Origin: Escherichia phage Seurat
Reading direction: 5' to 3' (one strand)
Sequence record: NC_027378.1
DNA: 56,776 bases
Position numbers and translations under genes: made by a program. Shown here piece by piece: positions 742 through 56,319 of the stretch (its first letter is position 1; the number at the start of each line of letters is the position of its first letter). The notes under the pieces are model-generated. The model made no database searches. It was not told the origin of the DNA and was given only the letters and a program-made list of their open reading frames with translations.

Positions 742-2278
742 TAACATGCCGCGAGTCGTCTGGAAACCACATCCAGGTTCACAGACACTCGCTCTATCCT
801 GCCCCGCTGATATTATCCTATACCACGGAACTCGCGGTCCTGGAAAAACGGACTGCCAGCTTATGCGTTTCCGTAAGAATGTTGGTGTAGGGTACGGTAA
901 ATTTTGGAAGGGTATTATATTCGACCGTGAATATAAAAACCTTGATGACCTTGTAACTAAATCCCAGCGTTGGTTTCCTGAATTTAAAGACGGGGCTAAA
1001 TTCCTTAGTTCTAAGTCTGATTATAAATGGGTTTGGCCTACTGGTGAAGAGCTACTGTTCCGCGTTGCTTGTAAAGAAAAGGATTACTGGTCTTATCACG
1101 GTCACGAATACCCATTTATCGGATGGAACGAATTGACAAAATATCCGGACGGGCGTTTGTTTGAAGCTATGATGTCCTGTAACCGTTCATCTTTCCTACC
1201 AGAAGATAACCCAATTATCAATCCAGATGGTACGGTTACATATTTACCGGATATCCCTCTTGAAGTGTTTGCTACCAGTAACCCGTTCGGTGCGGGGCAT
1301 AACTGGGTTAAGAAACGCTTCATTGACGCTGCACCGATGGGTAAAATACTCAGGAAGACTACGCGAGTGTTTAACCCGAGGACGCAGAAAGACGAAGATG
1401 TGGTTACGACGCAATGCCATATCTTTGGTTCGTACCGTGAAAACAAAAACCTAAGTCCAAAATATATTGCAGAACTTATGTCTATCACAGACCCGAACAA
1501 GCGTGCTGCATGGTTGGGCGGGAGCTGGGATATTACATCCGGTGGTATGTTCGATGATCTGTGGCGTAGCACTGTTCACAAAGTACGACCATTCCCGATT
1601 CCAGCGAGTTGGAAGATTACACGTTCTTTCGACTGGGGTTCTTCAAAACCGTTCTCTGTCGGTTGGTGGGCTATTAGTGATGGTTCGGATGTTGTGCGTG
1701 AAGATGGCACTACATTCTCCACGGTCCGCGGTGACCTGTTTAGGATTAACGAATGGTATGGGACCAACGGTAAAACAAACGAAGGTCTACATTTGCTGGA
1801 CTCAGAAATTGCAAGCGGTATACTGGAGCGGGAATTGGCCTGGGGTATACACGATCGTGTAGTTCCTGGTCCTGCGGATAACTCCATTTGGGATCTGGAG
1901 AACAATAACTCCACCGCTGCAACAATGGCGAAGAAAATTCGTCTTAACGGGAAGTTATACAACGGTATACATTGGAAGCGCAGTGATAAGTCTGCTGGGT
2001 CACGTAAACGAGGCTGGCAGAAAATGCGTGAGTTCCTTAAAGCTGCACTGCGGGAAGATGCGAACGGTAAACCTTTGCCCGGTCCGCGCGAGAATCCGGC
2101 AATGTACATTTTTGATAACTGCAACTATTTCTTTGAGCTGGTTCCAAGTCTACCTCGCGATGAAGTAGATCAGGACGACGTTGATACGGAATGTGAAGAC
2201 CATATGGGTGATGAAGTTCGTTATATGGTTCTGGATCAAGCTGTTTATACAGGTGTTGGCAAAACTATCGGTATTTAA
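719..2278 (+). CDS. terminase large subunit
   Basis: 519 aa; Walker A-like HGTRGPGKTD near the N-terminus; acidic nuclease-like C-terminal half; followed by the portal gene. Confidence 0.8.
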   Translation: MELNRQPDNMPRVVWKPHPGSQTLALSCPADIILYHGTRGPGKTDCQLMRFRKNVGVGYGKFWKGIIFDREYKNLDDLVTKSQRWFPEFKDGAKFLSSKSDYKWVWPTGEELLFRVACKEKDYWSYHGHEYPFIGWNELTKYPDGRLFEAMMSCNRSSFLPEDNPIINPDGTVTYLPDIPLEVFATSNPFGAGHNWVKKRFIDAAPMGKILRKTTRVFNPRTQKDEDVVTTQCHIFGSYRENKNLSPKYIAELMSITDPNKRAAWLGGSWDITSGGMFDDLWRSTVHKVRPFPIPASWKITRSFDWGSSKPFSVGWWAISDGSDVVREDGTTFSTVRGDLFRINEWYGTNGKTNEGLHLLDSEIASGILERELAWGIHDRVVPGPADNSIWDLENNNSTAATMAKKIRLNGKLYNGIHWKRSDKSAGSRKRGWQKMREFLKAALREDANGKPLPGPRENPAMYIFDNCNYFFELVPSLPRDEVDQDDVDTECEDHMGDEVRYMVLDQAVYTGVGKTIGI

Positions 2279-42510: not shown

Positions 42511-42704
42511 TTACCCCTTAAGTTTTGAATCATTCTATCACAGGCAGCTTTTACAGAAGAGTTTTGCCAGTCTTCCTCAATTTGTGAAGGTTCTTCAGGT
42601 GAATAAGCAGCACTAATCAAGCACTGATTATAACCTTCAATATAAGCCTGTTTTGCGGTATCTACTATTGATTGTAAAGCGATATTGAATAATTGTTCAG
42701 ACAT
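42507..42704 (-). CDS. hypothetical small protein
   Basis: Start reset to MSEQLFNIALQ... with RBS GAGGTG; the upstream extension in the track is unlikely. Confidence 0.4.
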   Translation of the reverse strand: MSEQLFNIALQSIVDTAKQAYIEGYNQCLISAAYSPEEPSQIEEDWQNSSVKAACDRMIQNLRGK

Positions 42705-42712
42705 TTTACACC

Positions 42713-42787
42713 TCACAAAATATACATAAACCAGAAATAACCAGCTACGAAAATAGCACCCGCAAATAATTTTAAAATCTCGAACAT
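42713..42787 (-). CDS. hydrophobic micro-protein (24 aa), not in the ORF track
   Basis: MFEILKLFAGAIFVAGYFWFMYIL preceded by RBS GGAGGG at 6 nt spacing. Confidence 0.4.
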   Translation of the reverse strand: MFEILKLFAGAIFVAGYFWFMYIL

Positions 42788-42945
42788 TGTTCCCTCCGTT
42801 AACTTTATGCTGTAAGTATAGCAGGACTTGCGATGTATACAACAACTTTAGACTTGAAATACATCTATAAAATAGCACGATTTGCCTTTACCTCTGATCC
42901 GTCTAGCTGTACTATTAACCCATAAACAGAGCGGAGGATTACAAA

Positions 42946-49908: not shown

Positions 49909-50094
49909 ATGTTAATCTTAATCATGATGGTCGTTGCGGTAGTGGGCCCACTGGTGGCACTGATTGTAACCGAAGTATGTGATGCTAAATGGGATCGCAA
50001 ATACAACGAAGTAATGGAACAGCGGTATGCAGAGCGCCGCGTAAGGAAATGGGAACAGCGCTATAACGCACACAGCGACACGCTAGCGAGCTAA
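49909..50094 (+). CDS. small membrane protein
   Basis: 61 aa; N-terminal TM helix; RBS GGAGG. Confidence 0.45.
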   Translation: MLILIMMVVAVVGPLVALIVTEVCDAKWDRKYNEVMEQRYAERRVRKWEQRYNAHSDTLAS

Positions 50095-51630: not shown

Positions 51631-51681
51631 TTATCAATCTATAATGGGCTCTACGGAGCCCTTAATTATCTGGAGGTTGTT

Positions 51682-51978
51682 ATGCTGTATTTAGGAATGG
51701 ACGAAACTGGACACGCGATTCCTTCCGTTAACAAGGAGACGCAAGTATTTACCGACTATTACGGGTCTGCTGTCCCTGTTGAGCCCTGGGCTAACTTTAT
51801 CGCTGTAGACGCAGACGGTAAAGTACATTGTTATGACGCCAAACCTTCTTGCTATGAATCTGGTAAGCAATGGATGCTTGGCGTATACGGTTTGCATGTT
51901 CGCTACTGCGGCGAAGTTGACATTGAAGGTGTGGACTGGCGCGATACGTTGAAGGAGATTAAAGATGTCCGCGGCTGA
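51682..51978 (+). CDS. small acidic protein, paralogous family member
   Basis: VEPWANFIAVDADGKVHCYDAKPS...GVDWRDTLKEI; RBS GGAGG. Confidence 0.5.
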   Translation: MLYLGMDETGHAIPSVNKETQVFTDYYGSAVPVEPWANFIAVDADGKVHCYDAKPSCYESGKQWMLGVYGLHVRYCGEVDIEGVDWRDTLKEIKDVRG

Positions 51979-52051
51979 AGTTACGACATTTATAATAGCT
52001 TTTGCTGTTGCTTTATTCCTTATAGCTAAGTTAGATTTAATGATGGGATAG
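51965..52051 (+). CDS. hydrophobic micro-protein (28 aa), not in the ORF track
   Basis: MSAAEVTTFIIAFAVALFLIAKLDLMMG; RBS AGGAG; overlaps the stop of the previous gene. Confidence 0.4.
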   Translation: MSAAEVTTFIIAFAVALFLIAKLDLMMG

Positions 52052-52054
52052 TTT

Positions 52055-52279
52055 ATGCGCTTACTCATGGTGTTAGGCGTTATACTTGCCGCTTTCGTTG
52101 TATTTGCAATTGTAGACTCTAAAGAAATGGAGCGGCAAAACTGCCAACGTACTGGTAACAGCCGGGATGATATTATTTGGCAATATATTTACGATGCAAA
52201 AGGTAATGTTATGTCAATGTATCCTCAGGTTATTACTGAGTATGAATATAAATGCAATGACCGTAACAGGTGGAGATAA
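52055..52279 (+). CDS. small membrane protein
   Basis: 74 aa; N-terminal TM helix. Confidence 0.45.
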   Translation: MRLLMVLGVILAAFVVFAIVDSKEMERQNCQRTGNSRDDIIWQYIYDAKGNVMSMYPQVITEYEYKCNDRNRWR

Positions 52280-53087: not shown

Positions 53088-53155
53088 TTGAAGAAAATAT
53101 CAAATATTGGAAAGGCTTTATTGACGAAATGTTGAAACCATTGGAGAAGAAATAA
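53081..53155 (+). CDS. translationally coupled micro-ORF (24 aa), not in the ORF track
   Basis: ATG overlaps the upstream stop (ATGGTGA) and its TAA overlaps the downstream ATG (TAATG). Confidence 0.35.
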   Translation: MVIEENIKYWKGFIDEMLKPLEKK

Positions 53156-53547
53156 TGCTATTAGTCGTCACCGGAGGTCGAGATTTTAAGCATGTGGAGT
53201 ATATTTACGCTCAATTGGATAAGCTGCATATGCAAAGAAGGATAACCACACTTCGCCACGGTGACGCTGACGGTGTTGACCGGATTTGCGCACATTGGGC
53301 GGAGCGCAACGGTATTAAAACAGAAGCATTCCCTGCCCCGTGGGACAATCTTTCCTTACCAAATACCAAGATACGGTATAATGCCAAAGGTGCTTATAAT
53401 GCACAAGCAGGCGCTTACCGCAACCAATTAATGCTGGATACTGATCCTAAACCAGATCACGCTATTGTGTTTCCTGGCGGAGCTGGTACTATGGATATGT
53501 ACAGACGGATTAAAGCATCCGGTATTCCTTACACTTTAGCGGAGTAA
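53155..53547 (+). CDS. SLOG/LOG-like Rossmann-fold protein (DUF2493-like)
   Basis: VVTGGRDF, GDADGVDR and VFPGGAGTMDM glycine-rich motifs. Confidence 0.45.
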   Translation: MLLVVTGGRDFKHVEYIYAQLDKLHMQRRITTLRHGDADGVDRICAHWAERNGIKTEAFPAPWDNLSLPNTKIRYNAKGAYNAQAGAYRNQLMLDTDPKPDHAIVFPGGAGTMDMYRRIKASGIPYTLAE

Positions 53548-54510: not shown

Positions 54511-54696
54511 ATGACCAAACTATACGCCGGATTGTTTTTATTTGCGACGTTAATGTTCGCTGGGCTTTATACCTATACAGTAGTCGAACAACCTTCCACG
54601 GTTATCCGAATCTTTGCAAGTACAGGGCTTTGCATCTGTCTTATTCTATTTGTTTTATGCATTGTTATTATCCAAGACCAAAGGAAAGTTAAATGA
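54511..54696 (+). CDS. holin-like small membrane protein (2 TM)
   Basis: 61 aa, two TM helices, basic C-terminus QDQRKVK; RBS AAGAGGGG. Confidence 0.5.
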   Translation: MTKLYAGLFLFATLMFAGLYTYTVVEQPSTVIRIFASTGLCICLILFVLCIVIIQDQRKVK

Positions 54697-55974: not shown

Positions 55975-56319
55975 ATGTTCAATTCACCCAACGAACATTG
56001 GGCAGTTCTAGCGGGGTTTGCGTTTATCTCCCTCATTGGGGGAGCTCTCGGTTATGTCATGCGTACAATAGACGCTGGTAAGAAAGTACGGGCAAGCATT
56101 GCATTTCTTGAAGGCTTATCCGCCGCTTTCTTTGGCGTTATAATGTATGCGATCTACAGGGAGTTTAACATCAGCCTTTGGTTCGCTTTTGGCCTTGCTG
56201 GCCTATTTGCTTGGGCAGGTTCACGTGCTACGCTAAAAGCCCTAACGTCGCTTATAGCTTCACGGACAGGGATCAAACTCGATTCAGGGGACTGCAAACA
56301 TGAAAACGATTCTAAATAA
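55975..56319 (+). CDS. membrane protein (3 TM), holin-like
   Basis: 114 aa; three hydrophobic helices; RBS GGAGGG; just upstream of the spanins. Confidence 0.45.
   Translation: MFNSPNEHWAVLAGFAFISLIGGALGYVMRTIDAGKKVRASIAFLEGLSAAFFGVIMYAIYREFNISLWFAFGLAGLFAWAGSRATLKALTSLIASRTGIKLDSGDCKHENDSK

Follow-up and report, generated by a model that had tools for sequence, protein, structure and literature searches.

Bacterial small membrane proteins, of which YohP (27 aa), KdpF (29 aa), MgtS (31 aa), CydX (37 aa) and AcrZ (49 aa) are examples, have fewer than 50 residues, one hydrophobic helix and very short tails, and they are often overlooked by gene finders. Type I toxins, such as IbsC (19 aa), ShoB (26 aa), TisB (29 aa), Ldr (35 aa) and Hok (about 50 aa), are stand-alone and tightly repressed. 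The single-gene lysis proteins of ssRNA and ssDNA phages, including LysM (37 aa), MS2 L (75 aa) and phiX174 E (91 aa), are very small, single-helix proteins that bind a host membrane enzyme.

PetN (29 aa) and CioY (34 aa) are further bacterial small membrane proteins (PMC12648545). Proteins under about 45–50 aa are barred from co-translational SRP targeting, and small membrane proteins are inserted after their release, via SRP/YidC/SecYEG or spontaneously (PMC12648545). Type I toxins, e.g., IbsC (19 aa), consist of a single transmembrane helix with tails of a few residues (PMC12648545). A small membrane protein of phage T4, Ac, is thought to act on the AcrAB-TolC efflux pump of the host (PMC13250531).

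Here, gp76, a 28-codon open reading frame (ORF) of Escherichia phage Seurat, is compared with these systems by computational analysis of the window, i.e., the whole 56,776-nt stretch of DNA (NC_027378.1). gp76 has the size, the single predicted helix and the short tails of bacterial small membrane proteins, and like them it escapes gene finders; unlike them, it is encoded by a phage, and searches of Pfam and NCBIfam gave no relationship to families of the YohP/KdpF/CydX/MgtS/AcrZ type. KdpF resembles gp76 in its "MSA" start and similar length, and neither KdpF nor any other named bacterial small-protein family gave a profile match in Pfam or NCBIfam. With type I toxins gp76 shares the size range, the single transmembrane helix and the short extensions; in contrast to them, it lies within a translationally coupled operon, no antisense RNA partner or SD-sequestering fold was detected, and it matches none of their families. 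T4 Ac is about twice as long as gp76. Both are small and non-essential, and T4 Ac is situated in the inner membrane, where it is assumed to contact a host membrane machine; however, the two have no sequence similarity and come from different phage families. The single-gene lysis proteins also lack sequence similarity to gp76, which, unlike them, is optional among relatives and belongs to a phage with a full endolysin/holin/spanin cassette elsewhere.

The gp76 gene, its neighbors and its annotation

gp76 (CPT_Seurat76) occupies 51965..52051 on the + strand and consists of 28 codons followed by TAG, with the product MSAAEVTTFIIAFAVALFLIAKLDLMMG. It is located about 2.5 kb inside a rightward block of small genes of unassigned function that begins near 49.5 kb. 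Its ATG is preceded, at a distance of 7 nt, by the Shine-Dalgarno (SD) sequence AAGGAG (51952-51957, +), which lies within the coding sequence of the upstream gene gp75 (51682..51978, +; 98 aa; PHROG 1972, E = 9e-28), an annotated gene in all relatives. The start of gp76 overlaps the 3' end of gp75 by 14 nt (51965..51978, +), a geometry of translational coupling, and gp76 is read in the +1 frame relative to gp75, whose stop codon TGA is at 51976-51978. The downstream gene, gp77 (CPT_Seurat77; 52055..52279, +; 74 aa; PHROG 8826, E = 5e-35), has its ATG 3 nt past the gp76 stop, and its N-terminus, MRLLMVLGVILAAFVVFAIV, carries a hydrophobic segment. An earlier sequence-only reading of this DNA had described the ATG, the ribosome binding site and the overlap with the gene starting at 51682, all correctly, and the small protein with an N-terminal transmembrane segment that it saw immediately after the ORF is this 74-aa gene.

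From the gp75/gp76 overlap and the position of the gp76 stop just before the gp77 ATG, the three genes appear to form a coupled chain. Ribosomes ending gp75 at its TGA would be 11 nt past the gp76 ATG, for which AAGGAG is optimally spaced. SD-like bases for gp77 occur only in the last codons of gp76 (GGGATAG, GGGGTGA); these codons (GGG/GGA plus stop) may double as a weak SD for gp77, which is probably translated by coupling to gp76. A frameshift fusion of gp75 and gp76, which would give a tail-anchored gp75, was rejected by sequence inspection, the overlap ATGTCCGCGGCTGA containing neither a slippery heptamer nor a prfB-like CUU-UGA.

In the 51-nt gap 5' of gp75, a G+C-rich hairpin, GGGCTCTACGGAGCCC (51646..51661, +), directly follows a TATAAT-like hexamer and is itself followed by TTAATTATCT. 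The counterpart of this site in phage SA80RD is annotated as a promoter and a rho-independent terminator, and the hairpin may mark a transcription-unit boundary just upstream of gp75, gp76 and gp77. Downstream of gp77, the gene at 53155..53547 (+; 130 aa) encodes a YspA/SLOG-type domain (PF10686, E = 5e-18), and in relatives the protein is annotated inconsistently, as a GTP-binding domain, a DNA-binding protein or a phosphoribosyl transferase.

The ORF had been taken to be unannotated. In fact, the exact peptide is present in Seurat's own record (KM236243) as "hypothetical protein CPT_Seurat76" (AIW03939.1 / YP_009152020.1). According to its announcement, the Seurat genome has 56,776 bp, 88 CDSs (called by GeneMarkS and then curated) and a G+C content of 44.6%, the value also measured for the window. 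Orthologues are annotated in Cronobacter phages CSP1 (CSP1_042, ARW59074.1) and CSP1C (CSP1C_079, XFA12225.1), with 23 of 28 residues identical to Seurat gp76 and with equal position and geometry, and all three entries carry only the label "hypothetical protein." A gap of about 76 nt is left blank over the ORF in the records of slur01, SLUR25, SD04, SA80RD, SA126VB, KS_W4, RCIP0359, SeppeHuegi, WildeMaa, and ECP2304, and the match covers no annotated gene other than the two flanking ones in SLUR63, Skure, GottfriedDienst, KS_A3, KS_S4, and SHIN8. In at least 12 GenBank records of relatives the annotators passed over the ORF, and none of the automatic gene calls on public assemblies includes it, a concrete case of the systematic under-annotation of phage micro-genes. 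Because the existence of gp76 is already on record, this is not the discovery of a new ORF; what is added is comparative evidence that the 28 codons are under purifying selection and that the gene comes and goes independently, as an optional cassette, at a hotspot of recombination with five or more arrangements.

Conservation and coding strand

The gp75 junction was collected from GenBank phages, IMG/VR, a metagenome scan and public-assembly contigs located via the 74-aa neighbor; the metagenome scan was anchored in the upstream gene, so that the ORF was not presupposed. The region around gp76 is 88–98% identical to that of Seuratvirus phages (Queuovirinae). The ORF is present in 47 loci (11 nucleotide haplotypes, 8 peptides) and the junction lacks it in 40, some of the loci being the same phage taken from two sources. 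A frame interrupted in related phages had been named beforehand as the finding that would speak against the ORF, and neither an internal stop nor a frameshift occurs within the 28 codons in any of the 47 loci (11 haplotypes). The ATG and the GGAG core are kept in 47/47, the upstream contexts GAAGGAGAT, AGGGAGAT, ATGGAGAT and GAAGGAGATTAC all containing the core. The sole length change near the start is a 3-nt insertion just 5' of the ATG, which leaves both frames intact. The position of the stop is constant and its codon varies (TGA in six haplotypes, TAG in two and TAA in two). One haplotype, found in two ENA assemblies (ERZ16268159, locus L107, and ERZ17292902, locus L114), is one nucleotide shorter in the terminal GGG run; residues 1–28 are intact and 11 are added, giving 39 aa that overlap the gp77 start. 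This deletion may be genuine, or the two assemblies may share a homopolymer error.

The 28-codon ORFs at the 3' junction of gp75 belong to one Seuratvirus orthologue group, with the invariant pattern MS.AEVTTFIIAF..ALF..AKLDL across the 11 haplotypes. The selection tests rest on 17 variable sites from phylogenetically related sequences, which are distributed over codon positions 1, 2 and 3 as 6, 1 and 10 (chi-square p = 0.028). By parsimony, 9 changes are nonsynonymous and 11 are synonymous, whereas neutrality would give 3.3 nonsynonymous changes for each synonymous one; this corresponds to an omega of about 0.25 (binomial p = 0.002). The pooled pN/pS is 0.26, compared with 0.40 and 0.13 for the flanking genes in the same genomes. 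Synonymous divergence reaches 0.41, and SD04 and RCIP0359 are separated by 6 synonymous changes and no nonsynonymous one. All replacements exchange one hydrophobic residue for another (A/T, A/V, V/I, L/F, I/L, M/F, M/I, G/W). Overlapping constraints could account for some of this conservation, as the first 14 nt also encode the C-terminus of gp75 and the last codons may double as the weak SD of gp77.

By itself, the open frame is unremarkable, because the probability that 28 codons stay open is about 0.20 at the base composition of the window and the window has many small ORFs. Among the 522 ORFs of 20–45 aa in the window, gp76 is within the top 2% by hydrophobicity, and it alone combines strong hydrophobicity, the strand of the gene block and a position in an inter-gene gap. 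An argument from gene packing was discarded as weak, because other gaps in the same block measure 51–67 nt and a non-coding gap of 76 nt would not be odd. A structured RNA in the gap was also rejected: the fold is no better than that of shuffled sequences (z = +0.64) and Rfam gave no match.

One antisense frame is also open across gp76, and its pN/pS is 0.26 as well. The two values are identical because this frame shares its third codon positions with gp76, and dN/dS was therefore rejected as proof of the coding strand, a caution for gene calls based on this measure. The codon-position pattern, the chemistry of the replacements, the conservation of the ORF ends and the boundaries of indels were used instead. 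The near-invariant second codon position has 1 variable site in the sense reading vs. 6 in the antisense reading. Sense replacements have a mean BLOSUM62 score of +0.5 and a mean hydropathy change of 1.36, whereas the corresponding values are −0.33 and 3.79 for the antisense ones, among them I/N and I/R. The antisense frame in Seurat is part of a 125-aa ORF (51691..52068, −) that spans gp75 and the micro-ORF. Since the stop-free stretch varies from 46 to 170 codons among relatives, with ends that are not conserved, it is a shadow ORF, and it underlies gp75, whose coding on the + strand is well supported. Where the micro-ORF is missing, the edges of the indel coincide with the boundaries of the sense ORF. 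These observations indicate that gp76 is very probably a real gene under selection.

An optional cassette at a recombination hotspot

The comparison shows that gp76 is an accessory, non-essential cassette at a hotspot of recombination and that gp77 is not its obligate partner. About half of the Seuratvirus loci lack it, and its absence takes the form of a clean indel. In the first arrangement, the micro-ORF is followed by gp77 (Seurat, slur01, and many others). In the second, the micro-ORF is absent and gp75 and gp77 are joined by an ATGA overlap (CAjan, OddieOddie, SLUR75, SLUR76, VogelGryff, KurtStettler, PLYYY01, and many assemblies). The micro-ORF is followed by a different gene in CSP1, CSP1C and SA80RD, and at one locus (L059) both the micro-ORF and gp77 are absent. 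Finally, phiG7 has an unrelated 90-aa gene (MNVTEAAKRMV...; 1166..1438 of locus L067) that starts in the same SD-ATG slot and likewise overlaps the gp75 homologue by 14 nt. Across the five or more arrangements in the genus, the SD-ATG slot (51952..51967) appears as a conserved docking site for different cassettes.

The micro-ORF and gp77 occur in all four combinations of presence and absence, so they are not obligate partners. On the other hand, an MRLL-type N-terminus of gp77 is always found with the micro-ORF and an MKIF-type always without it. This strict linkage indicates that the exchanged unit is the micro-ORF together with the first few gp77 codons; from the alignment and the junction sequences, the unit by which micro-ORF carriers differ from CAjan-type genomes extends approximately over 51966..52066 (+), i.e., the micro-ORF and the first ~4 codons of gp77.

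Within the collections scanned, gp76 is confined to the genus Seuratvirus. A codon-aware pattern for the invariant block AEVTTFIIAF matched only slur01 in IMG/VR and gave 0 matches in 100,044 species genomes, and of the 35 matches to an invariant 17-mer in IMG/VR only slur01 was genuine. A host or prophage origin was rejected, as no match was found in 5,426 E. coli genomes or in the 100,044 species genomes. An origin from a duplicated transmembrane segment of gp77 was likewise rejected, the local alignment score being below the shuffle mean. SD04 and CSP1, labeled as phages of Aeromonas schubertii and Cronobacter sakazakii, respectively, are 93% identical here to the E. coli Seuratviruses and have the same micro-ORF haplotype; the locus of CSP1C, propagated on E. 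coli K-12, is the same as that of CSP1.

The sequence-only reading had placed gp76 in a set of small membrane peptides and had proposed that the phage encodes several transmembrane micro-proteins. The genome does encode further small membrane proteins, including a conserved ORF at 42713, but a functional set with gp77 is not borne out: the two genes occur in all four combinations, gp76 has no sequence relationship to gp77, and no paralogue of it was found in the window. The 24-aa hydrophobic ORF at 42713..42787 (−), MFEILKLFAGAIFVAGYFWFMYIL, has GGAGGG 6 nt upstream, and 8 nt separate its stop from the next leftward gene. The protein collection does not contain it, so that it is truly unannotated in Seurat. 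GottfriedDienst, KS_W4, ECP2304 and CSP1 all conserve it; most of the changes are synonymous, and I4L and A11I are the only amino-acid changes; in CSP1 it is annotated as CSP1_063 and is retained despite a different downstream gene, and in KS_W4 a 123-aa ORF is annotated across it instead. A stretch of about 159 nt around this ORF (42702..42860, −) is 95–96% identical to Salmonella phages SWJM-02 (84.7 kb) and vB_SalM_SPJ41 (89.6 kb), which suggests that either the assemblies are chimeric or DNA was exchanged between groups of phages. Among the genes of the rightward block, gp69 (49909..50094, +; 61 aa) has an N-terminal hydrophobic segment, and gp83 (54511..54696, +; 61 aa) has two hydrophobic segments and is labeled "multisubunit Na+/H+ antiporter MnhF subunit" by one source.

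Possible roles of the gp76 peptide

From its composition, the product is predicted to form one membrane-spanning helix with the uncharged hydrophobic core VTTFIIAFAVALFLIA (codons 6–21; 51980..52027, +). The 16 uncharged residues (V6–A21) are situated between the invariant E5 and K22/D24, and the tails have about 5–7 residues. The maximal 17-aa Kyte-Doolittle mean is 2.42 (2.36–2.54 over 8/8 peptide variants) and the summed energy on the Hessa scale is about −3 kcal/mol. By these hydropathy calculations gp76 is a generic small single-pass membrane protein, with fewer than 50 aa and one hydrophobic segment, and its composition makes membrane insertion likely; a core of only 16 residues is short for a full span of the bilayer. 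As it has no cysteine, it cannot be a lipoprotein. With 28 residues it is below the size needed for SRP to target it co-translationally, and its insertion would therefore be post-translational, either via SRP/YidC/SecYEG or spontaneous. No match to gp76 was found in Pfam (E up to 1), NCBIfam (E up to 10), PHROGs, the PDB or the PADLOC defense models (E up to 10), and gp76 does not qualify as a defense component by the latter.

On balance, we favor the interpretation that gp76 is a real accessory gene for a translationally coupled, single-helix inner-membrane peptide that may modulate a membrane protein. The helix would pack against an inner-membrane protein of the host or the phage and alter the activity of that protein. 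By analogy with bacterial small membrane proteins and T4 Ac, candidate roles are host take-over, superinfection exclusion and counter-defense. Taken separately, a modulatory function, rather than that of a toxin or a cis-acting relay, is proposed tentatively, at somewhat less than even probability.

The micro-ORF might instead act in cis, its translation carrying ribosomes from gp75 to a next gene with a weak SD and its peptide being incidental. In every arrangement with the micro-ORF its stop lies 3 nt before the downstream ATG, even where that gene is a different one (CSP1, CSP1C, SA80RD), and the confinement of SD-like bases for gp77 to the last gp76 codons, the strict linkage to the MRLL-type start and the unrelated phiG7 gene in the same slot all fit such a relay. 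However, the positions of start and stop would suffice for this purpose and a conserved peptide would not be needed, which is at odds with the omega of about 0.25 (p = 0.002), the invariant core residues and the exclusively hydrophobic replacements. Moreover, CAjan-type genomes couple gp75 directly to gp77 by the ATGA overlap, so that a relay is not needed. We consider this explanation improbable.

The peptide could also damage the membrane, in the manner of a type I toxin or a holin, by oligomerizing and dissipating the proton-motive force for host shut-down or lysis timing. Its size and architecture fit type I toxins such as IbsC (PMC12648545), and its strong hydrophobicity points in the same direction, as does the presence of the lysis genes on the same strand, about 3.5 kb downstream with about ten genes between. 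On the other hand, gp76 belongs to none of the type I toxin families in Pfam and NCBIfam (Hok/Gef, Ldr, Ibs, ShoB, TisB, and others), to no holin family in PHROGs or Pfam and, as noted, to no defense family in PADLOC. Neither an antisense RNA antitoxin nor an mRNA fold hiding the SD was detected at gp76 (Rfam, z = +0.64). Promoter-like sites on the minus strand occur at chance frequency (29 found vs. 21.8 ± 4 expected), and the gene in which they fall, downstream of gp76, is a different one in CSP1 and SA80RD. The lysis genes occupy about 55.5–56.8 kb, with the holin at 55975..56319, and their homologues in SeppeHuegi are annotated as endolysin, holin, i-spanin and o-spanin. Membership of gp76 in this cassette or in a holin-antiholin pair was rejected, since the cassette is located elsewhere; gp76 is not adjacent to any of its genes, and about half of the relatives lack gp76 yet have the same lysis cassette. 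A membrane-damaging peptide has, in our estimate, a low probability.

That gp76 is no gene, and merely a chance frame in an AT-rich spacer or an other-strand shadow kept by linkage to constrained neighbors, would suit the chance of about 0.2, its omission from at least 12 GenBank records and every automatic gene call, the equal antisense pN/pS and the few variable sites, but it is very improbable in view of the start, SD and stop position conserved through changes of stop codon, the second codon position with 1 of 17 variable sites, replacements that are conservative in the sense frame only, indel boundaries coinciding with the ORF, an antisense ORF with unconserved ends under a well-supported + strand gene, and the independent annotation of the ORF by three groups.

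The BASEL collection contains both carriers (GottfriedDienst/Bas21, Bas23, Bas24) and non-carriers (Bas22, 25) of gp76, and these natural differences make a functional comparison easy to set up. A division of the BASEL Seuratviruses by phenotype according to carrier status was rejected, the published profiles being described as homogeneous.

Starting from the interpretation of gp76 as a coupled accessory membrane peptide, a more far-reaching and rather unlikely proposal is that it founds a genus-restricted orphan family of mobile single-helix peptides that occupy the conserved coupling slot and whose products bind to and re-tune a specific inner-membrane machine of the host; the targets would be, e.g., a transporter, a receptor-uptake component or a membrane-bound defense effector. 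If this is true, carriers would gain in superinfection exclusion or counter-defense, and the conserved 24-aa ORF at 42713 would represent another such case in this phage, independent of gp76. The significance of gp76 is modest, as it is an ordinary example among the many small membrane proteins of phages; if its target were found, it would provide one more example of phages manipulating host membranes with single-helix peptides.
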